A DNA stretch of 20,998 nucleotides from the IMG/VR virus record IMGVR_UViG_2877973648_000001, positions 1-20,998 of that record. The stretch is one strand, 5' to 3'. This document shows positions 539 to 20,566 of this stretch, one piece after another. The DNA comes from a virus. Taxonomy: Duplodnaviria; Heunggongvirae; Uroviricota; Caudoviricetes. The notes beneath the pieces were generated by a model, which saw only the letters and a list, made by a program, of their open reading frames with translations, searched no databases and was not told the origin of the DNA. The position numbers and the translations under genes were made by a program. Positions within the stretch are counted from its first letter, which is position 1. Every line of letters begins with the position of its first letter.

Positions 539-1039
539 ATGGAAAAGGAAAAAAGAAATGACCTAAAGGGTCAGGAATTACCACATGTAAAACAAGCACT
601 ACGAGTATGGAATAATTTTCACTCAAGAGTACGTAATAACATCAATTACAGTACTGTTACCATCTGCGATGACTGGTATCGGTTTAGTGATTTTTATTAT
701 TGGTATGTTGAAAATGTTGTTGATGGTTGGCATTTAGATAAAGACATATTAGGAGGTAATGAGTACAGCCCAAGTAACTGCATCTTTGTACCGAGAGAAG
801 TAAATCAATTGTTCCGTAAAGTACCAACATCATTATCAACCGGTGTTGTCGTTAATCATAAGGGCTATCAAGCACAAGCAACATTTGATAAGAAAGTACA
901 TAAGTTTGGGACATACCCAACGATAGAAGAAGCTCATGCTGCTTATGTTGTTGAGCGTAAATCATATATCTATAAAATATCGCAGCAGTATAAAGCATTT
1001 CCAAAACTTAGTGCGGTACTATTACAAAAATCAAAATAA
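539..1039 (+). CDS. HNH endonuclease with C-terminal AP2-like DNA-binding domain (phage homing-endonuclease-like)
   Basis: Track ORF 166 aa. Motif GWHLDKDILGGNEYSPSNCIFVPREVN matches the HNH_3-type pattern (H-x-D...N...N); VVNHKGYQAQATFDKKVHKFGTYPTIEEAHAAYV matches the AP2 domain pattern. Confidence 0.7.
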   Translation: MEKEKRNDLKGQELPHVKQALRVWNNFHSRVRNNINYSTVTICDDWYRFSDFYYWYVENVVDGWHLDKDILGGNEYSPSNCIFVPREVNQLFRKVPTSLSTGVVVNHKGYQAQATFDKKVHKFGTYPTIEEAHAAYVVERKSYIYKISQQYKAFPKLSAVLLQKSK

Positions 1040-1629: not shown

Positions 1630-2301
1630 TGTTTTAATAACGGTTCAAATGTCGTAATTAAGGTTAAATGTGGTTTTTATGGGGTTGATTAGTGTTGCTT
1701 GCACTAGATATAGTATCTATATGAGTTAAAACACACTGTATATGGGTTGCCCAGAATTTCGACACCATAATTAGAAATTATTAAGACCTCTTGTACTACG
1801 TCCAAATCGGTCTTTGAGTGCCTACACTCCCTGCGGTCGTATAGTCACTGAAAAACAAATTAAACCGAACCTTGCGTTTTTTCTCGCTAGTACTCGAAAA
1901 GAACTAAGGGATTTACTCGCTTTCGCTCAGACAAGTAACAGTACTGACAAAAGAAGAACTCAAAGTGATTTGGTAAGTATTCGTGAGTAACTACGTGGTC
2001 GTAAACTCCCTTGTCGGGGCGTTCGGCTGTTAAAGCCTCACATAATTACTTTCTAAGTACTGGCAAAGTAATTGATCAAATTATTAGTGAGTTGCCCACG
2101 CAGTCCCAACCGCGAACCGTGGATCGACCGAACCCAGATTGTTGCATACGATTTACATAATCGTTCCTTGCAAGTAGATATATTAATTTGAACAACAGAA
2201 GCAGTCTTAGCTTTCTATCTAAGCTGTAAGGTTGCTTATCTGATACTTGAACAATTACAGGCATTTGGAGTACTATTAGCAATACATTCTGTTTAGAGAT
2301 A

Positions 2302-4216: not shown

Positions 4217-4945
4217 ATGAACCGGAAGCAATTCATCCAGTCGCACGGAGCTACTTGCAGTAACTGGACGTGGAGTTGGTCATTTGTTAACCATGAAAAG
4301 AAGATGGTCATCTTTGGGTCATGGGATGTTGAGAGTGAACAAGAGCGGTCAGTCATTCTTCGAGAGCGTTGGGAGTACAACTCAAACAACAAAAAACAAC
4401 TGGGATACACCCAGGCACTGGAACACGTCAGGTTAGTCCATGAAGGCTACGAACTTTACACCTTCAATATGGTTTTCGCAGAACACCCGGATAACCCTGA
4501 AATTGCAGTTATCAAGGATTTTGAGCGTAAATTAAACAAGCGATATCTGCGTAAAGAAGGCGTTGTTTGGTATGCAGACTTCTTACCTAATCCATTCCCT
4601 GATGAAATTCCTTCAGGAGAGAGTTTTGTTGAAGGTGCAAAGACTCAAGTAACAGTGAACTACTACGAACGCGATCCAAAGGCCAGACAAGCCTGCATCC
4701 AACATCACGGTACTACCTGTAAATGCTGTGGTTTCGATTTTGAGAAGGTCTATGGTACACATGGCCGTGGATTCATTCATGTACATCACATCAAGCCGCT
4801 TCATACGATTGGGGAAAACTATGTGGTCAACCCCGTAACAGATATGGTCCCATTATGTCCAAATTGCCATGCAATGGTACATCGTGGGAGCAAAGTACTT
4901 TCAATTGCAGACTTGAAAGAGAAAATGACCTTTTGGAGCGAGTAA
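4217..4945 (+). CDS. HNH nuclease-domain protein with an uncharacterised N-terminal domain (candidate type IV restriction / defence nuclease)
   Basis: Track ORF 242 aa; AAAGGA 7 nt upstream of ATG. C-terminal CKCCGFDF...GFIHVHHIKPLHTIGENYVVNPVTDMVPLCPNCHAMVH is a zinc-finger HNH motif (C-x2-C ... HH ... N ... C-x2-C-H). Confidence 0.7.
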   Translation: MNRKQFIQSHGATCSNWTWSWSFVNHEKKMVIFGSWDVESEQERSVILRERWEYNSNNKKQLGYTQALEHVRLVHEGYELYTFNMVFAEHPDNPEIAVIKDFERKLNKRYLRKEGVVWYADFLPNPFPDEIPSGESFVEGAKTQVTVNYYERDPKARQACIQHHGTTCKCCGFDFEKVYGTHGRGFIHVHHIKPLHTIGENYVVNPVTDMVPLCPNCHAMVHRGSKVLSIADLKEKMTFWSE

Positions 4946-5806
4946 ATGGATTTATCACAATTGAGTAACGTCGAATTGATGCAACTGAATCAGTTGACGC
5001 TTGATGAGTTAGAACGACGAGAGGTTATCAGAACCAGAAACAATCCTATCAGTGAGTACACTGAATGGCTGGTTGCGGATAAGATGCAAATGGTACTGGC
5101 TGCACCTAGTACTAAAGGGTATGACGCTACAACGATTGATGATCGAAAAATTCAGATTAAGTCTCGTAAGAATAATTTAAAAAACAAATCATTAATTCTT
5201 GGGATTATCAGAAATTATGATCTGAACCAATTCGATGAGCTCATTGCCGTAATATATAACCATGATTTCTCAATTCGTTATGCTGTATCCATACCACATG
5301 AATTAGTGAAGGAATATGGTTTTTATAATGAGCACCAGAATGGTTACACTTTAAGAATCAGCAATTTATTACTTAACGATCCACGTGTAACAGACATCAT
5401 TGAATTTATTGATCCAGACACTGAACGTTCAAAGGAAGAGATCACGGTGAAGCCAGATTCAAACACTATCCGGGATCTACAGACAATAGGAATGCAGACA
5501 TTTATTGAGTACTATCAGTATGTTGAAAGTGGTATGAACACAACTGATCTTGTTGAAAAGATGGTAACTGACCATCCAGAATGGAAGGAAAGTACTGCAA
5601 GAACAAAGGCATCTTCAATGCGAAGAGTATTCAAGAATGGCGACAACGTTGAAGCACTAAAAATCATCTATAAGTCGAATCACTCAGCAATAACGGATGA
5701 GATTAAGAGTAAACTTATGACGCTTTGTGAACCGCTCCGGTTTTCCTGGAGAGTATTTTGCCTGAGTGATCAGGCTGCCACATCCCGGTCATTCAGCGAA
5801 GCGTAA
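4946..5806 (+). CDS. hypothetical protein translationally coupled to the HNH gene; native C-terminus replaced by IS-derived codons
   Basis: ATG at 4946 directly follows the upstream TAA (TAAATG). The IS629-like end lies at 5728, so residues after ...KLMTL are read from IS sequence. The reconstructed native gene ends ...MTLWDK (263 aa) using 9306-9314. Possible PD-(D/E)xK-like motif GYDATTIDDRKIQIKSRK. Confidence 0.55.
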   Translation: MDLSQLSNVELMQLNQLTLDELERREVIRTRNNPISEYTEWLVADKMQMVLAAPSTKGYDATTIDDRKIQIKSRKNNLKNKSLILGIIRNYDLNQFDELIAVIYNHDFSIRYAVSIPHELVKEYGFYNEHQNGYTLRISNLLLNDPRVTDIIEFIDPDTERSKEEITVKPDSNTIRDLQTIGMQTFIEYYQYVESGMNTTDLVEKMVTDHPEWKESTARTKASSMRRVFKNGDNVEALKIIYKSNHSAITDEIKSKLMTLCEPLRFSWRVFCLSDQAATSRSFSEA

Positions 5807-6242
5807 TAGGCTTTTTCTGCCTCCACTGGCGGGATATATCCGGTCCGTTCCATCAATCGGTGATTATTGTACCAGTCCACCCATTTCAGCGTAGCCAGCT
5901 CAACATCCTGTCGGGTTTTCCAGCTTTGCCTGTGGATCACCTCCGCTTTGTACAACCCGTTGATACTTTCTGCCATCGCATTGTCATATGAGTCGCCCGT
6001 GCTGCCTGTTGAAGCCAGCAGCTCCGCGTCCTGCAGCCGTTGCGTGTACGCCAGTGACACATATTGCGAACCTTTGTCGCTGTGATGGATGGTACCGCTC
6101 GGGCGTCTGGCCCACAGCGCCTGCTCCAGTGCATCCAGCACGAACGACGTTTCCATCGTGGATGAGACCCGCCAGCCCACGATAACACCGGCGAACACAT
6201 CAATGATGAAGGCCACATATGCGAACCCCTGCCAGGTGCTGA
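5770..6242 (-). CDS. IS3-family transposase OrfB, C-terminal exon (downstream of the group II intron)
   Basis: Translation ...STWQGFAYVAFIIDVFAGVIVGWRV...DSYDNAMAESINGLYKAEVIH... is the DDE catalytic/C-terminal region of IS3-family OrfB; the track ORF 5770-6216 begins at an internal GTG. Confidence 0.75.
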
Positions 6243-8512
6243 GTAGAGTAAGAGGCAGGGCGTAGTCGGACTATTTCCCTGCCTCTCCTCCCCGAACCGG
6301 ACGTGCACCTTTCAGCGCATCCGGCTCTCCATTTAAATGCTGGCGAACGCCATTGCCACTTCTGTAAAGCGCGATGTATACGTGTTTCTGGTCTCCGTCC
6401 TCAGATAGGGATTACCTTCGGGTAGCCGCCAGCGGAACAGCTTCTTGCCTTGCCCCACCAACCGGTACAGTATTTCGCCGCTGAGCTTGCCGTGATTGGT
6501 TTTACCAAATAAAACCCACGTTTTGCTCTGACCCGGTTTCGGTGATTTACACCACCACCTCATCAGGGAAGCGATACCTGTACGGTATTTGCGGGCCAGC
6601 CAGTGAGCCAGCTTCCAGAACACGACACGGTCGATATAACTGAAGACTTTGGCCTTAAAATCAACGAACTGATAGAACATGGCCCAGCCTTTCAGTTTTC
6701 GGTTGAGTTGTTCAGCCATATCGACTTTGCTTTCACTGTAGTTGCCTGATAACAGTGCTGTCAGCGATGCGGCGAAGTTTCTGGCTTTCTCCTGCGGGAT
6801 CGTTGAGACCACTCGCATCTCGCCATAACGACTGCGTTTGCGAATGATCCTGTGCCCCAGAAAGATAAAGCCGTCATTAACATGGGTGATTTTAGTCTTA
6901 TCCATGTTCAGCCTGAGTTTCAGACTGCCTTCGAGCACACCCCGACACTCCTCCCTGATGGCTTCCGCCTGTGCTTTGGTGCCTTTGACGATGAGGACAA
7001 AATCATCGGCATAGCGGCAGTACGCCACCGCGGGTTTCCACTGCCAGTTTTCTCTGACCGCCGTACTTCGGCCCCGTTGGATACTGTTATTCCAGTACCA
7101 CCGATCTTTTCTGGCTTTCCCGCTCAGGTAGCGCTCATGCAGGTATTGATCGAACTCATTCAGCATGATGTTCGATAATAGCGGCGATATAACACCGCCC
7201 TGTGGCACACCTTCACTGGCCGCCCGAAAGAGACCGACATCGATATGTCCCGCCTTGATGGTTTTCCACAGCAGAGTCATGAAACGTGCGTCACTGATCC
7301 TGCGGCGTACAGCCTTCATCAGCAGTCGATGATGTACGGTGTCGAAGTAACTGGACAGGTCGCCTTCAATCACCCAGCGTCCCCGGGTTTCACCACAGTC
7401 TGTGAGCTGTAATTTCACCGTGCGGATCGCGTGGTGGACACTGCGCTCAGGCCGGAAGCCATATGAGAGCGTATGAAAATCACTCTCCCATATCGGCTCC
7501 ATCGCCATCAGCATGGCCCGCTGAACAATACGATCCCGCAACGCGGGGATACCCAGTGGTCGCAGTTTGCCGTTGCTTTTAGGGATGTAAACCCGTCTGG
7601 CGGGCAAGGGCTGGTAGTGGCCTGAGAGTAATTCATCCCTGAGGATTTGCAGCTCAACAGCCAGTCTGGCCTGTAGCATTGTTTTGTTCACGCCATCAAC
7701 GCCGGGGGTATGGGCCCCCTTTGATGAAAGCGTGATCCGCGCCGCTTCAGCCAGCCATTCTGGTTGTGTTATCAGACGCAGCAGCCGTTGAATCCGTAGG
7801 GACGGATCGGTGACTGCCCATGTGGCAAGCTTGCGTTGCATTTCGCTGATTATCAAAGGTCTTCACCTCGTTAGGTCAGTTAATTCACGTCGCAAACACA
7901 TTCAAACTGCTTCCCTTCGCCATGTAATGGGCTTTCCCCATCGCGGACTACTACGGAAGCTCCGCCAGCCAGCGCGTCATCGGAGCCATGCCCCCTTAAC
8001 ATCCGTCGCTGACCTTCCCCGGTTTACCTGCCTGGACTCAGGCATACTGAGGAGGCTGCCCGTCGCACTCTTTATCCTTGCTTGCCGCAAGTTGGCAGAA
8101 GTCAGCAACGCAAGCGTGATAGACGCTGCTGCCCCGGTGTTTCGCATACATGTCAAAACACCTTCGACCGGCAGTGCTTACGTATCACTGCCAGTTCCTC
8201 CTGCACGGCCTGTCAGATCACGTAGGCCGTGGTGACGTTTTCAACCCACAGAGGCGGATTAACGGGTTCATGTTCTTCAGCCTTTCAGTACTTAACCTTG
8301 AGGATCATCTCGGCTTAGTGATCTCGCCTCAATCCCCGTTGTCAGCGGGTTACATCACCCTGCGGGCATGCCGCAGGTCACTGCCGCTCAGGTTCTCCAC
8401 CGTCACACCCGGTGGGATTGTTGGGTTTCTCATCGTGAGTTACCGGTTCAATATTCCAGACAGACTCGCGGTTCATTTAAGCATCCATGCCCGCCCTGAA
8501 CTCCGGGCACAC
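6243..8512 (-). mobile_element. bacterial group II intron inserted in the IS629-like orfB
   Basis: Minus-strand 5' end GTGTGCCCGGAG (GUGYG consensus) starting at 8512; domain V GAGCCGGATGCGCTGAAAGGTGCACGTCCGGTTC at 6294-6327; domain-VI-like stem and 3' end ...CTAC at 6243. Joining the flanking exons gives a continuous OrfB (...ADFTY-V-STWQGF...). Confidence 0.8.
6333..7856 (-). CDS. group II intron-encoded reverse transcriptase/maturase
   Basis: Track ORF 507 aa with RT motifs (...RPLGIPALRDRIVQ..., ...YCRYADDFVLI...) and a maturase X region; ORF ends just upstream of domain V, as is typical for an ORF within domain IV. Confidence 0.85.
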   Translation of the reverse strand: MIISEMQRKLATWAVTDPSLRIQRLLRLITQPEWLAEAARITLSSKGAHTPGVDGVNKTMLQARLAVELQILRDELLSGHYQPLPARRVYIPKSNGKLRPLGIPALRDRIVQRAMLMAMEPIWESDFHTLSYGFRPERSVHHAIRTVKLQLTDCGETRGRWVIEGDLSSYFDTVHHRLLMKAVRRRISDARFMTLLWKTIKAGHIDVGLFRAASEGVPQGGVISPLLSNIMLNEFDQYLHERYLSGKARKDRWYWNNSIQRGRSTAVRENWQWKPAVAYCRYADDFVLIVKGTKAQAEAIREECRGVLEGSLKLRLNMDKTKITHVNDGFIFLGHRIIRKRSRYGEMRVVSTIPQEKARNFAASLTALLSGNYSESKVDMAEQLNRKLKGWAMFYQFVDFKAKVFSYIDRVVFWKLAHWLARKYRTGIASLMRWWCKSPKPGQSKTWVLFGKTNHGKLSGEILYRLVGQGKKLFRWRLPEGNPYLRTETRNTYTSRFTEVAMAFASI

Positions 8513-8927
8513 CGTAGGTAAAATCGGCCACCCAAAGACTATCGGGCCGTTCAGCCACGAACTGCCGGTTCACCCGATCCTGCGGTGTTTCGGCTTTGTT
8601 GCTGCGGGTGGTTCTGACACTTTTGCCGCGTGTCACCCCACGTAGCTGCAGGGCTTTCATCAGGCGCTCAATGGTGCAGCGGGCAACGCCGACACCTTCA
8701 CGTTTTAGCTGTCGCCAGACCTTACGCACACCGTAAACGCTGTAGTTTTCTTCGTATACGCGCTGTATCTCAGGTATCAGCACGGCATCGCGTTTATCCC
8801 GACTACTGCGTCGTTCAGGACACTTCCGGCGTTGCTGATGCCAGTAGTACGTTGACGGAGCAATATCCAGCTCATGACAGACTGGCCCGACCCCGTGTTC
8901 ACCGCTCAGATTTTCCAGAAGCGGCAT
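8513..8927 (-). CDS. IS3-family transposase OrfB, N-terminal exon (interrupted by the group II intron)
   Basis: Translation MPLLENLSGEHGVGPVCHELDIAPSTYYWHQQRR...RPDSLWVADFTY; after Y (codon 8514-8516) the sequence enters the intron. The track ORF continues to 8448 reading intron sequence. Confidence 0.75.
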
Positions 8928-9268
8928 TATTTTTTCCAGTGGCGGTCGAGCTCCGCCTGGGCAAAATACGCTGAAGCCTGACGCAGAATATCATTGCTGC
9001 GGCGCAGCTCGCGGACTTCCCGCTCCAGTTCTTTCAGACGCTGGCGTTCGCTGGCAGTCAGCGCATTCTGCTCATCATCAACGGGCTCCTGCTGACGGAT
9101 CCAGATACGCAATGTCTCGGGAGTGCAGCCGATCTTAGGGGCAATGGAGCAGATAGCGGCCCATTGTGAGTTGTAGGTATTCTGGTTTTCCAGAACCATA
9201 CGAATAGCGCGTTGACGAACTTCAGGGGGAAATCGGTTATGTTTTGTCATCCTGGTTACCTCTCTCAA
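8927..9268 (-). CDS. IS3-family (IS629-like) transposase OrfA, helix-turn-helix protein
   Basis: Track ORF 113 aa: MTKHNRFPPEVRQRAIRMVLENQ...LKELEREVRELRRSNDILRQASAYFAQAELDRHWKK; stop overlaps the orfB start (ATGA). Confidence 0.85.
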   Translation of the reverse strand: MREVTRMTKHNRFPPEVRQRAIRMVLENQNTYNSQWAAICSIAPKIGCTPETLRIWIRQQEPVDDEQNALTASERQRLKELEREVRELRRSNDILRQASAYFAQAELDRHWKK

Positions 9269-12781: not shown

Positions 12782-14027
<1,246 letters not shown>

Positions 14028-14900
14028 TCTTGACCCTCCATCTCCGAACAGCTTTTGTATCTTAAGTTAACGATGTCCGCTGCCGCCGGTATTCCCTCGG
14101 GGAGTGATATCCCAGCGCGCTGTGCGGGTGGTTTTCATTGTAATGCGTGAACGCTACTGCAAGGTTTCGCAGTGCTGTTCTCACATCCGGTTTTGGCATG
14201 AACGCGATATAGTCTTCTTTCATCGTTTTCACGAACCGTTCGGCCATGCCATTACTCTGCGGGCTGCTCACCGCTGTTGTGCAGGGCTCCAGATTCAGCT
14301 CTCTCGCGAACCTCCGCGTTTCATACGCGGTATACGCTGAACCGTTATCCGTCAGCCACTGCACCGCTGTGTCGGGCAACCTGTCGCCGAAGCGCTTTTC
14401 CACCGACCTCAGCATCACATCCTGCACGGTCGAACTGTCATAGCCTCCCGTGCTTGCTGCCCAGTCTATGGCCTCACGGTCGCAGCAGTCCAGCGCGAAC
14501 GTTACCCGCAGTTTTTCGCCGTTGTCGCAGCCGAACTCGAAGCCATCTGAACACCAGCGCATATCGCTTTCTGCCACCGCTATCTTGCCCTTATGTTCAA
14601 GCTTCGGTCGCTCTGGTTTGTGATGCAACAACAACAGGTTATGCTCGCTCATTATCCTGTAAAGCCGTTTGGCATTCACAGGTGGCTGTCCCTCTGTGCG
14701 ACGTTGCTTGCGCAGGATGCCCCACACGCGTCGATAACCATAACTCGGCATATCGCTGATAATGTTGAGGATAGCCGACAGTATTTCTGCGTCTGCTTCT
14801 TCATTACGCCGGTTACAGCGCCTGTCCTGCCAGTCGGCAGAACGGTTAATCCGCAGTGACAGTTGCGCACGCGACACGCCCATGGTCCGGCTGACCATGG

Positions 14901-16871
<1,971 letters not shown>

Positions 16872-17039
16872 CTAGATATACTTCAATTGGAATCATTACG
16901 TGAAGATGAATTTAACCTACATAAAATACATGAAAGTACTTTAGGCATAACAATATCTGTAGACCAGCTGACCTGCTCCCCGTTGATTAGTACACCCCGA
17001 TGTTAGTAATGTCTTCATAAGCCACATGAGGACATCCCC

Positions 17040-17303
17040 ATGAAGAAGCGTTTTTCCGACGAACAGATCATCAGTATTCTCCGCGAAGCCGAAGCTGGGG
17101 TACCCGCCCGTGAACTCTGCCGCAAGCATGCCATTTCCGATGCCACGTTTTACACCTGGCGTAAGAAGTATGGCGGTATGGAGGTGCCTGAAGTTAAGCG
17201 CCTGAAGTCGCTTGAGGAAGAGAACGCCAGACTCAAGAAGCTGCTTGCCGAAGCCATGCTGGATAAAGAGGCGCTTCAGGTGGCTCTTGGGCGAAAGTAC
17301 TGA
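17040..17303 (+). CDS. IS407-group transposase OrfA
   Basis: [49 protein letters not shown]...[15 protein letters not shown]... closely resembles IS407 OrfA as I recall it. Confidence 0.8.
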
Positions 17304-17326
17304 CGACAGACCAGAAGCGGGAAGCC

Positions 17327-18160
17327 GTGATGTTGATGTGTGATGCGACCGGTCTGTCGCAACGTCGTGCCTGCAGGCTTACAGGTTTATCCCTGTCGAC
17401 CTGCCGCTATGAGGCTCACCGTCCGGCTGCTGATGCGCATTTATCAGGGCGCATCACTGAGCTGGCACTGGAGCGCAGGCGTTTTGGCTACCGTCGTATT
17501 TGGCAGTTGCTGCGCCGTGAAGGGCTTCATGTTAATCATAAGCGCGTGTACCGGCTTTATCACCTCAGTGGCCTGGGCGTAAAACGCAGAAGACGTCGTA
17601 AAGGGCTGGCAACAGAACGTCTGCCGCTGCTCCGTCCGGCGGCGCCCAATCTGACCTGGTCGATGGATTTCGTCATGGACGCACTTTCCACCGGTCGCAG
17701 GATCAAGTGTCTTACCTGCGTCGATGATTTCACAAAGGAATGCCTGACGGTCACTGTTGCCTTTGGGATTTCAGGCGTTCAGGTCACGCGTATTCTGGAC
17801 AGCATTGCACTGTTTCGAGGCTATCCGGCGACGATAAGAACTGACCAGGGGCCGGAGTTCACTTGCCGTGCACTGGATCAATGGGCCTTTGAGCATGGTG
17901 TTGAGTTGCGCTTAATCCAGCCGGGCAAGCCAACGCAGAACGGATTTATTGAGAGCTTTAACGGACGATTTCGCGATGAATGTTTGAATGAGCACTGGTT
18001 CAGCGATATCGTTCATGCCAGGAAAATTATTAATGACTGGCGGCAGGATTATAACGAATGCCGCCCGCACTCCACGCTGAATTATCAGACACCGTCTGAA
18101 TTTGCAGCGGGCTGGAGAAAGGGTCATTCTGAGAATGAAGATTCCGACGTTACTAACTGA
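17327..18160 (+). CDS. IS407-group transposase OrfB (DDE integrase)
   Basis: Track ORF 277 aa with ...[10 protein letters not shown]...[56 protein letters not shown]... (rve-type catalytic core). Confidence 0.8.
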
Positions 18161-18414: not shown

Positions 18415-18450
18415 AAAGGCGATAGTACATAATGCTATCGCCTTTTTGTT
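18415..18450. terminator. candidate bidirectional intrinsic terminator
   Basis: AAAGGCGATAG (18415-18425) / CTATCGCCTTT (18435-18445) with 9-nt loop, followed by TTGTT; lies between the terminase tail stop (18410, +) and the lysozyme stop (18449, -). Confidence 0.5.
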
Positions 18451-18898
18451 ATTTGTTGGTTAGTACTGCAATCATTGCATCAACACGATTAGGTGTTTGT
18501 TTATACCATAATGAATCTTTAGCCTGTCTGATGGCTTCCGGGTAATCTTTTGCTTTAAGGGCTACTAACATCTTTTTGAATTTCTGTACCCCGCCTAAAC
18601 CTAACTGGAACATCATTATCACAAGAAAATCTTTCCACTCGTCAGGTAGCCAGATATTGAGTGTTTCGACGTTATGCACTGCAATTAGTATATCTTGGTC
18701 TAGTAGGCTTTCCGCTTGCTCAATAGTAATACCATCTGGATACTTTTCACCAACATGTAGTAAATGACCGTAGCCGATGGTTTCAAATTCTAGTGAATCT
18801 TTGTATGTCCAAAATTTGTTATCGTGAAAGTACTTCAATTTTGTTTGATAAGCGATAGTACCTTCATATTCTTTTAATCTGTCTTTTAGTTTACTCAT
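18449..18898 (-). CDS. phage lysozyme, T4-type (glycoside hydrolase family 24 endolysin)
   Basis: Track ORF 149 aa; ...YKDSLEFETIGYGHLL...DQDILIAVHN...MMFQLGLGGVQKFKKMLVALKAKDYPEAIRQAKDSLWYKQTPNRV... parallels T4 lysozyme (YKDTEGYYTIGIGHLL...NMVFQMGETGVAGF...SRWYNQTPNRA). Confidence 0.8.
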   Translation of the reverse strand: MSKLKDRLKEYEGTIAYQTKLKYFHDNKFWTYKDSLEFETIGYGHLLHVGEKYPDGITIEQAESLLDQDILIAVHNVETLNIWLPDEWKDFLVIMMFQLGLGGVQKFKKMLVALKAKDYPEAIRQAKDSLWYKQTPNRVDAMIAVLTNK

Positions 18899-20261: not shown

Positions 20262-20548
20262 TTGGAATGATAATTGATTTAATCAAAACTGGAGTAGGTT
20301 TCTTCCAGAAGAAAGAACAAAGTAAGCAAGAGCTGGACGCACAGAACAGCCATGAACAGAACCAGATCACACTTGAAGAAACGCGTAAGGGCTTCACTTG
20401 GCGACAGGGCTTAGGATGGGTACTGACGTTCATCATTCTATGGAACTACGTCATTGTGCCAGTACTGGCCTTATGTGGTGTAGTACTCCCCATTGTTCCA
20501 CTTGATGAAATATGGAAAGTACTGATAATCTTGATTGGTGGGAGCTAA
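20258..20548 (+). CDS. small membrane protein with two C-terminal TM helices (holin-like topology)
   Basis: Track ORF 96 aa; charged N-terminal half followed by WVLTFIILWNYVIVPVLALCGVVLPIV and KVLIILIGG; start overlaps the upstream stop. Confidence 0.4.
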   Translation: MIGMIIDLIKTGVGFFQKKEQSKQELDAQNSHEQNQITLEETRKGFTWRQGLGWVLTFIILWNYVIVPVLALCGVVLPIVPLDEIWKVLIILIGGS

Positions 20549-20566
20549 ACCTATTGGAGTACTTAC

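Follow-up and report, generated by a model that had tools for sequence, protein, structure and literature searches.

An unannotated non-coding module beside a small helical protein gene appears to link enterobacterial defence islands to RaK2-like jumbo phages and may be a replication origin

The question raised by this locus is what purpose is served by about 670 nt of apparently gene-free DNA at positions 1630-2301 of an otherwise densely coding sequence of 20,998 nt (IMG/VR record IMGVR_UViG_2877973648_000001, positions 1 to 20,998; referred to as the window). The window is part of the chromosome of Escherichia coli AREA_C483 (RefSeq NZ_CP123310.1), in which a low-GC island (abbreviated L001) lies between yeaG and mipA with a large serine recombinase at its start. 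The gap is best explained as the cis-acting partner of the gene immediately upstream, designated gene X, with X and the gap forming a module common to RaK2-like jumbo phages and a family of islands. A more specific reading, held tentatively and with somewhat less than even confidence, is that the gap serves a putative jumbo-phage satellite as a replication origin of phage type that depends on X. The features concerned are as follows, in window coordinates.

1105-1629, + strand: gene X, encoding a helical protein of 174 aa with a basic N-terminus (RGRKPK), the proposed repeat binder
1635-1670, + strand: distal direct repeats TAATAACGGTTCAAATG and TAATTAAGGTTAAATG, starts 20 bp apart, read from the sequence
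1751-1763, - strand: proximal inverted copy of the repeat, CCAGAATTTCGAC, matching the reverse complement of 1651-1663 at 10 of 13 positions
1766-1785, no strand assigned: AT-rich block CATAATTAGAAATTATTAAG, abutting the proximal repeat
1816-1850, + strand: hairpin with arms GAGTGCCTA and TAGTCACTG and a 17-nt loop, one of 8 lineages with a hairpin at this position
1871-1973, + strand: conserved core CTTGCGTTTTTTCTCGCTAGTACTCGAAA...TTTACTCGCTTTCGCTCAGACA...ACAGTACTGAC, 76-83% identical across islands
1974-2040, + strand: downstream module 1, with TTCGTGAGTAACTACG and the hairpins CTCCC-TTGTC-GGGG and GGCT-GTTAA-AGCC, present in most lineages
2041-2135, + strand: downstream module 2, a degenerate second copy, AGTACTGGCAAAG...ATTAGTGAGTTGCCCACGC, including the GC-rich island at 2091-2135
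2136-2310, + strand: lineage-specific stretch upstream of the cargo coding sequence (CDS) starting at 2311

Conservation of the gap and its association with gene X

The gap extends from the stop of gene X (1629) to the annotated start of the next CDS (2311), and record NZ_CP123310.1 carries no annotation in it. An earlier, sequence-only reading of the window had described 1630-2301 as free of open reading frames (ORFs), with a GC-rich string and two short motifs occurring twice each, and these descriptions were borne out. No ORF of at least 60 aa was supported, the gap holding only ORFs of 20-68 aa (58, 49, and 68 aa among them), and none of the six gap ORFs matched Pfam at E ≤ 1; the quoted GC-rich string sits at 2091-2135, TACTCG at 1891 and 1914, and GGTCGTA at 1836 and 1997. 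The G+C content of the gap is approximately 0.38-0.42, compared with 0.30-0.36 in the genes on either side.

Conservation in related elements, the absence of which (along with a lack of transcription) the same reading had named as refuting its proposal, was found. In a sensitive blastn search of 5,426 E. coli genomes, positions 1834-1973 were 76-83% identical to unannotated DNA in 32 other strains. Two of these strains were inspected (loci L002 and L003), and in both the matching DNA was in a different island, located beside ffs and carrying a tyrosine integrase. In these ffs-type islands the module directly follows the gene of a 155-158-aa hypothetical protein that is 16-21% identical to X. 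Pattern scans detected the core in further genera (Mangrovibacter and Dryocola), in about 20 metagenome contigs, and in 4 IMG/VR contigs. A profile search showed the X family to be restricted to Enterobacterales, with no member named.

More than 20 related islands of Enterobacterales have an ORF-free stretch of 420-670 nt directly after the X homolog and in the same orientation. Even the divergent members, from Kosakonia, Yersinia, Edwardsiella, and Serratia, have the same order: a recombinase and a few small genes, then X, then 420-670 nt without genes, and then variable cargo. The cargo behind the stretch is unrelated between islands in both content and strand. The islands are integrative, with a serine or tyrosine recombinase first and variable, defence-type cargo. 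Judged from this arrangement, the gap belongs to the upstream gene X. The suggestion that it is the leader of the downstream nuclease gene had to be abandoned, because the downstream genes differ in identity and strand at every related locus while X always precedes the gap. The label "Mrr-like" given to that downstream gene is itself weak, as the protein matches Pfam Mrr_cat at E 0.0016 with 19 bits, below the cut-off of 21.

The core is far more conserved than X: it remains 76-83% identical where the X proteins are only 13-30% identical. This bears on the least favourable explanation of the gap, that it is a decayed gene, an intron remnant, or a non-functional spacer. The small ORFs of 58, 49, and 68 aa and the homing-endonuclease-like genes nearby could be taken in its favour; the conservation of the core across genera, next to a protein only about 13-30% identical, speaks against it, and no Pfam or intron model matched. 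The internal spacer of the core is 12, 13, 14, or 15 nt long depending on lineage, which places the conserved bases in different frames and so rules out a coding constraint on the core. A small protein encoded at 1814-1990 (the 58-aa ORF, which overlaps the core) was rejected, since indels shift its frame between lineages, and so was a pseudogene, in view of the absence of a Pfam match and of a preserved frame, no BLASTX-type search against all proteins having been made. A group I intron remnant, also proposed earlier, found no Rfam match, group I intron models included. The pattern of conservation refutes decay or mere spacing, to which we give hardly any credence, and points instead to a conserved, functional non-coding region rather than a chance spacer.

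Anatomy and covariation of the module

In other lineages, distal repeats equivalent to those of the window are found in the same place and 20 bp apart (22/42 in L034 and 23/43 in L038), and in every lineage a proximal copy lies about 100-125 nt from the distal set and touches the AT-rich block. The repeats are wholly different in sequence between lineages, yet their positions and 20-bp phasing are kept. Loci L003, L036, L037, L038, and L039, in which X is 65-94% identical, share the identical repeat CATCTTGCGACC and carry either tyrosine or serine recombinases. Between the window and the Kosakonia island L034, with 46% identity in X, the repeats match at 10 of 13 positions, and no relation between repeats is seen in lineages with X 13-32% identical. 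It is the lineage of X, not the type of integrase, that the repeat sequence follows. This is the pattern expected of an X-binding site, and X probably binds the repeats; the 20-bp spacing indicates protein binding to duplex DNA. In one metagenome variant (L007, approximately 6450-6640), the repeats after X are replaced by a long tandem array of TTCTTTTAT, with the hairpin and core intact.

The AT-rich block, which aligns with TTATATTAATATTA, TTAATATAATATT, and TCTATTATTAAAT of other islands and RaK2, may serve as a -10-like element or else as a short element for DNA unwinding. Beyond it, the arms of the hairpin are only about 33% identical between lineages, and 67 of 72 arm positions are Watson-Crick paired, with no G:T pair. 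Across 8 lineages (RaK2 included), each arm position is occupied by 2-4 types of pair. The loops, 9-20 nt long, share a motif of the TCGTCG...CCTC type. Compared with shuffled sequences, the hairpin was significant in 7 of 8 lineages (p ≤ 0.02), the copy in the window being the weakest (p = 0.13). The variable loop length argues against a rigid dimer bound to duplex half-sites, and the lack of G:T pairs is weak evidence that the hairpin forms in DNA rather than in RNA.

The core occurs once in the window and is near-invariant between islands, reading GCGTTTTTTCTCGC.AGTACTCGAAA...TTACTCGCTYTCGCTCARACA...ACAGTACTGAC, with the palindrome AGTACT at two invariant positions (1889 and 1940). Behind it (1974-2135) there are one or two downstream modules, each consisting of TTCGTGAGTAAC... 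followed by short GC hairpins; some lineages have none, and module 1 is not present in L002 and L003. In the alignment, the first hairpin of module 1 varies as CCC/GGG, CTCC/GGAG, and GCC/GGC, and T:G is exchanged with T:A on the + strand. Module 2 is recognized from direct repeats D2 and D5 and a palindrome at 2059-2092, and is partly kept in L005, L016, and L032. The lineage-specific stretch 2136-2310 has no similarity to the other loci except for an identical metagenome contig (L029), and no convincing promoter or terminator was seen in it. Two further possible resemblances are those of GTGAGTAC to an SlmA-binding site and of TACTACG at 1794 to the pMV158 nick site, the latter sequence not being conserved in other lineages.

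These features can also be read in terms of transcription. The repeats would then be operators of an X-controlled promoter, with the AT-rich block as its -10 element. From it would come a + strand RNA about 250-350 nt long, spanning roughly 1790-2040 or reaching 2135, that would include the hairpin, core, and GC hairpins and work as a regulator, or else as a primer or R-loop RNA. In all lineages a -10-like sequence (TATAAT, TATATT, or CATAAT) adjoins the proximal repeat, the main hairpin has a conserved loop and covarying arms, the small downstream hairpins vary in the manner described with T:G on the + strand only, and the G+C content exceeds that of the flanking genes. The primer version would, moreover, be compatible with an origin, RNA-primed origins being annotated in the T4 record. 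Set against this, neither a conserved sigma-70 promoter or -35 element nor an intrinsic terminator was found in the module across lineages, the 20-bp phasing of the repeats is a property of duplex DNA, and the lack of any G:T pair in 72 hairpin positions is unusual for an RNA helix. Searches for RNA pointed the same way. Rfam 15 gave no family for the gap at the gathering score and, at E ≤ 10, noise alone (15-19 bits, where the cut-offs are 36-140); the corresponding gaps in RaK2 and 10 other loci gave nothing; no tRNA or tmRNA was detected in the gap; the whole gap folded no better than shuffled sequences (z about -1.2 on both strands); and alifold found no consensus RNA structure in the invariant core. 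We consider the X-controlled promoter with a non-coding RNA unlikely, if still to be reckoned with. Of the earlier suggestion of a structured RNA or regulatory region, a conserved region of cis-acting type with a structurally conserved, covarying hairpin has stood, and an Rfam family, a better-than-shuffle global fold, and a consensus structure of the core have not.

Relation to jumbo phage RaK2 and putative function

Outside the islands, a homolog of X was found in RaK2, a jumbo phage of Klebsiella. ORF075 of RaK2 was detected at E 4.5e-29 with a hidden Markov model of 80 X sequences, in a scan covering 125 kb of RaK2 and 121Q; it matched X of the window in BLASTP (E 4e-8) and was matched by X of five other islands in tblastn (1e-10 to 2e-14). 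Behind ORF075 come, in this order, repeats, an AT-rich block, a hairpin, and GCGTTTTGTTCTCG. The repeats comprise two 36-bp direct repeats and an inverted copy, the AT block is TCTATTATTAAAT, and the hairpin is perfect, AATATTGATC-(18 nt)-GATCAATATT, with a loop resembling that of the Kosakonia island. Next comes AATTTGCGTTTTGTTCTCG, to be compared with AACTTGCGTTTTTTCTCGC of the islands, only the first 20 nt or so of the core being recognizable. The relation between islands and RaK2 is thus one of architecture and short motifs, anchored by protein homology.

RaK2 annotates two small ORFs of the opposite strand, ORF076w and ORF077w, over the module (L041 15849-16294, corresponding to RaK2 65849-66294). 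Since the islands have no counterpart of these ORFs, ORF076w, and possibly ORF077w, probably overlie non-coding DNA and are mis-annotated. The same locus (L041 16100-16420) contains two copies of a repeat of about 75 nt and terminator-like hairpins on the minus strand, and its GC skew tracks gene orientation and is uninformative on an origin.

A second link is a lysozyme gene of the island:

18449-18898, - strand: lysozyme gene, product 47% identical to RaK2 ORF073w (tblastn E 1.5e-39)

In RaK2, ORF073w adjoins the pair ORF074-075; the island lysozyme also matches the lysozyme domain of RaK2 gp5.

The third link is the palindrome AGTACT, of which the window has 50 copies compared with 4.2 expected (e.g., at 500, 515, 1052, 1889, 1940, 2056, 2269, 13057-13854, and 20461-20558). 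Almost all copies are in island DNA, coding and non-coding, with hardly any in insertion sequence (IS) or intron inserts, and the related islands have an excess of AGTACT around the conserved module. Observed relative to expected occurrence was as follows.

E. coli chromosomal flank (17 kb): 0 sites, 4.5 expected
Island: 7.8-10x
RaK2 (100 kb): 5.6-7.1x
E. coli jumbo phage 121Q (25 kb): 7.4x
T4 (25 kb): 0.4x

No account of this signature was found in the literature. A methyltransferase gene is located just past the end of the window (L001 41042-41752).

Phased, lineage-specific repeats beside a co-varying helical protein, an AT block, a hairpin of DNA type, and a core much better conserved than X together argue for a cis site, and suggest an element-specific protein that recruits conserved machinery to it. 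In the proposed sequence of events, X would bind the lineage-specific repeats at 1635-1670 and 1751-1763, and its binding would open or mark the neighbouring AT-rich block and hairpin. The invariant core (1871-1973) would be read by conserved machinery of the helper phage, and the excised island would then be replicated during infection, the region serving as a phage-type, iteron-controlled origin. As in iteron origins, phased repeats co-vary with the adjacent gene, 20-bp direct repeats and an inverted copy being present in all lineages.

That the signal would serve replication rather than packaging or transcription is suggested by three considerations. First, the RaK2 genes look early: ORF074-075 are preceded by a sigma-70-like promoter (TTGACT-17-TACATT), which suggests early function or expression. 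Second, a jumbo capsid could be filled by an island of 7-25 kb only after its amplification into concatemers. Third, there is the precedent of the satellite PLE, which has its own initiator and iteron origin and needs its helper phage for replication. Among the options listed in the sequence-only reading, replication fits best; integration, named there in the same breath, fits worst, because a lytic phage has the same module.

Packaging deserves separate mention. A pac site would be one at which X, acting like a small terminase, binds the repeats and the large terminase of the helper engages the core, with concatemers being packaged. The pac site of SPP1 has such a layout, and some satellites redirect packaging by means of their own small terminase. 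X proteins, of 150-175 aa and all-helical, are in the size range of small terminases, the two repeat sets about 100 bp apart would permit DNA looping, and L003 (a locus of about 7 kb) and L002, both fully spanned minimal islands, have no annotated terminase. X has, on the other side, no terminase match in PHROG, Pfam, or PDB, and in RaK2 its homolog is placed between the lysozyme and baseplate genes, with an early-type promoter in front, and not with the packaging genes. This explanation is regarded as improbable.

Far less probable still is an origin of transfer (oriT) of a mobilisable island, with X as an accessory protein of the relaxosome. The combination of a variable-armed hairpin and an adjoining conserved stretch does resemble the inverted repeat and nick site of such origins, and islands carrying oriT alone are common (bioRxiv 10.64898/2026.01.13.699239). 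No relaxase is present, however; blastn against 72,556 plasmids found nothing similar, and in the 5,426 E. coli genomes its hits were confined to the island family, with none in a conjugative element. An oriT, like an integration site, is unlikely because the module is used by a lytic phage.

Several observations weigh against an X-dependent origin of a jumbo-phage satellite. X has no similarity to RepA_N, primase-helicase proteins, any known initiator, or any terminase in PHROG, Pfam, or PDB, and the islands encode no recognizable helicase or primase. Neither a DnaA box (with up to 1 mismatch) nor a conserved IHF consensus was found in 9 lineages; such sites would be unnecessary for a phage-dependent origin. 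The conserved AT-only block, about 14-20 bp, is shorter than usual unwinding elements, and the downstream GC hairpins allow T:G pairs, as an RNA would. The tie to RaK2 has weak points as well. The alignment of the RaK2 module was made by eye after the X homolog had been located, the island core beyond its first 20 nt or so is not recognizable there, and nhmmer with a core profile found no match in 300 kb of RaK2, 121Q, and T4. In tblastn of sequenced phages, X was found in Alcyoneusvirus only, of which none is known to infect E. coli. Because DnaA and IHF sites are missing, X resembles no known initiator, and the putative origin function is deduced from anatomy, our confidence in the origin stays below even. 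A direct copy of phage sequence was also considered and rejected, as nhmmer was blank and blastn of the gap found no match in 50,697 phage records, with the same result for four concatenated core variants.

Extending the origin reading to the islands as a whole, these may be satellites of RaK2-like jumbo phages. The island of the window lies between a serine recombinase and chromosomal genes, with no capsid or tail genes annotated, and shares X, the lysozyme, and the AGTACT signature with RaK2-type phages, but it has terminase fragments and IS elements inside. It is possible, though doubtful, that the islands form an undescribed family of satellites of RaK2/121Q-type jumbo phages across Enterobacterales, with hosts that would include E. 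coli, Yersinia, Edwardsiella, Serratia, Kosakonia, Enterobacter, and others. In such a family, X and the origin-like region would have been captured from or shared with the phage, and AGTACT would be a mimicked "phage-self" signal for replication, protection, or packaging. No published account of this element was found in the literature on AGTACT, RaK2, Alcyoneusvirus, or satellites.

Island contents and comparison with known systems

Other features of the islands are described here in their own right. Upstream of X, positions 539-1039 (+ strand) encode a 166-aa protein matching phage HNH endonuclease families (phrog_953, E 1e-37), the C-terminal half of which looks AP2-like by eye; the ffs-type islands have an unrelated basic protein of 88 aa instead. 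At 4217-5806 of the window, beyond the Mrr-like gene and the opposite-strand gene next to it, two gene products match PADLOC models of methyl-directed restriction enzymes, namely an HNH protein (mREase_IV, E 4e-8) and the product of 4946-5806 (mREase_II, E 1.6e-62); the cargo beside the module is therefore of defence type. In the Edwardsiella island L037 (8155-10222), a reverse transcriptase (RVT_1) next to an STM3845-family gene has a likeness to retron-type defence, and CI/S24 repressor pairs are cargo in L036 and L037.

Farther along the window, positions 5770-9268 contain a group II intron within an IS3-family element, with domain V-VI identified by Rfam at 6243-6329, the reverse transcriptase at 6333-7856, and an ALIL frameshift pseudoknot of the IS3-family element at 8856-8972. 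The small and large terminase genes at 12815-18160 are split by IS3, IS5, and ISSen4 insertions, and an IS1222-type frameshift element is found at 17270-17387; this part of the island is decaying. At the far end, which was covered in two islands, a DUF2188 gene is present in both, L003 (8923-9988) and the island of the window (L001 41844-42065), accompanied in L003 by a small resolvase-type serine recombinase. A resolvase also occurs at the far edge of the retrieved stretch in L002 (from 11700) and L036 (from 10199).

Small defence islands with an integrase only are very common in Enterobacterales, and how they spread is mostly unexplained. An unannotated, widely conserved module appears to tie such islands to RaK2/121Q-type jumbo phages; sharing both a module and an oligonucleotide signature with a giant lytic phage offers a testable route, namely hitch-hiking on jumbo phages. 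The pairing of X and core can be used as a marker to find these islands, which also offer a way to study the unexplained genome-wide excess of AGTACT in RaK2 and 121Q.

Jumbo-phage transduction has been shown experimentally for islands of Pseudomonas (I55 and relatives; Zhao et al., PNAS 2025, PMC12595487), a family defined by intY and alpA downstream of tmRNA and by core genes such as radC and yqaJ. Those islands and the present ones have in common an integrase, a neighbouring small RNA gene (tmRNA there, ffs for part of the islands here), defence cargo, the absence of genes for autonomous transfer, and an association with jumbo phages (PMC12595487). They differ in that intY, alpA, radC, and yqaJ are not annotated in the island records examined here, for which no specific search was made, and in that the consulted part of that paper describes no X with a non-coding module; transfer was demonstrated there and is only proposed here (PMC12595487).

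With the T4 origins oriE and oriF, the resemblance is positional only: the RaK2 module is about 0.8 kb from the gp5 homolog of RaK2, and oriE of T4 is inside gene 5. Origins of the T4 type, as annotated in the T4 record, consist of a promoter, a downstream unwinding region, and an RNA primer. No homology between X and RepEA, RepEB, or gp5.1 emerged (hmmsearch E > 0.4; best value in the T4 gene 5 region, 0.44).

The nut sites of lambda (boxA and boxB) and the put sites of HK022 are antitermination RNA elements. What they have in common with the module is a hairpin whose loop is conserved and whose stem varies, close to a conserved stretch containing CGCTCT, where conserved DNA gives way to variable downstream genes; the hairpin of the module differs in having no G:U pairs. 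Read-through into the cargo cannot be the general purpose of the module, because the cargo frequently begins with a gene on the opposite strand.

The module also compares with satellites in which an iteron origin stands next to its initiator gene, such as PLE of Vibrio (RepA and a non-coding origin) and the rep-ori modules of Staphylococcus aureus pathogenicity islands (SaPI) and other phage-inducible chromosomal islands (PICI). As in those elements, a non-coding region with an AT block and phased repeats that track the gene lies beside a small gene of the element; the surrounding island is integrative, having a large serine recombinase and cargo for defence, and replication would presumably be helper-dependent. 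The differences are that X is unlike RepA_N, primase-helicase, and known initiators, that the module adds a hairpin with a conserved loop and an invariant core of about 100 nt, and that the helper would be a jumbo myovirus. The module is most likely a variation on satellite cis-elements and iteron origins.

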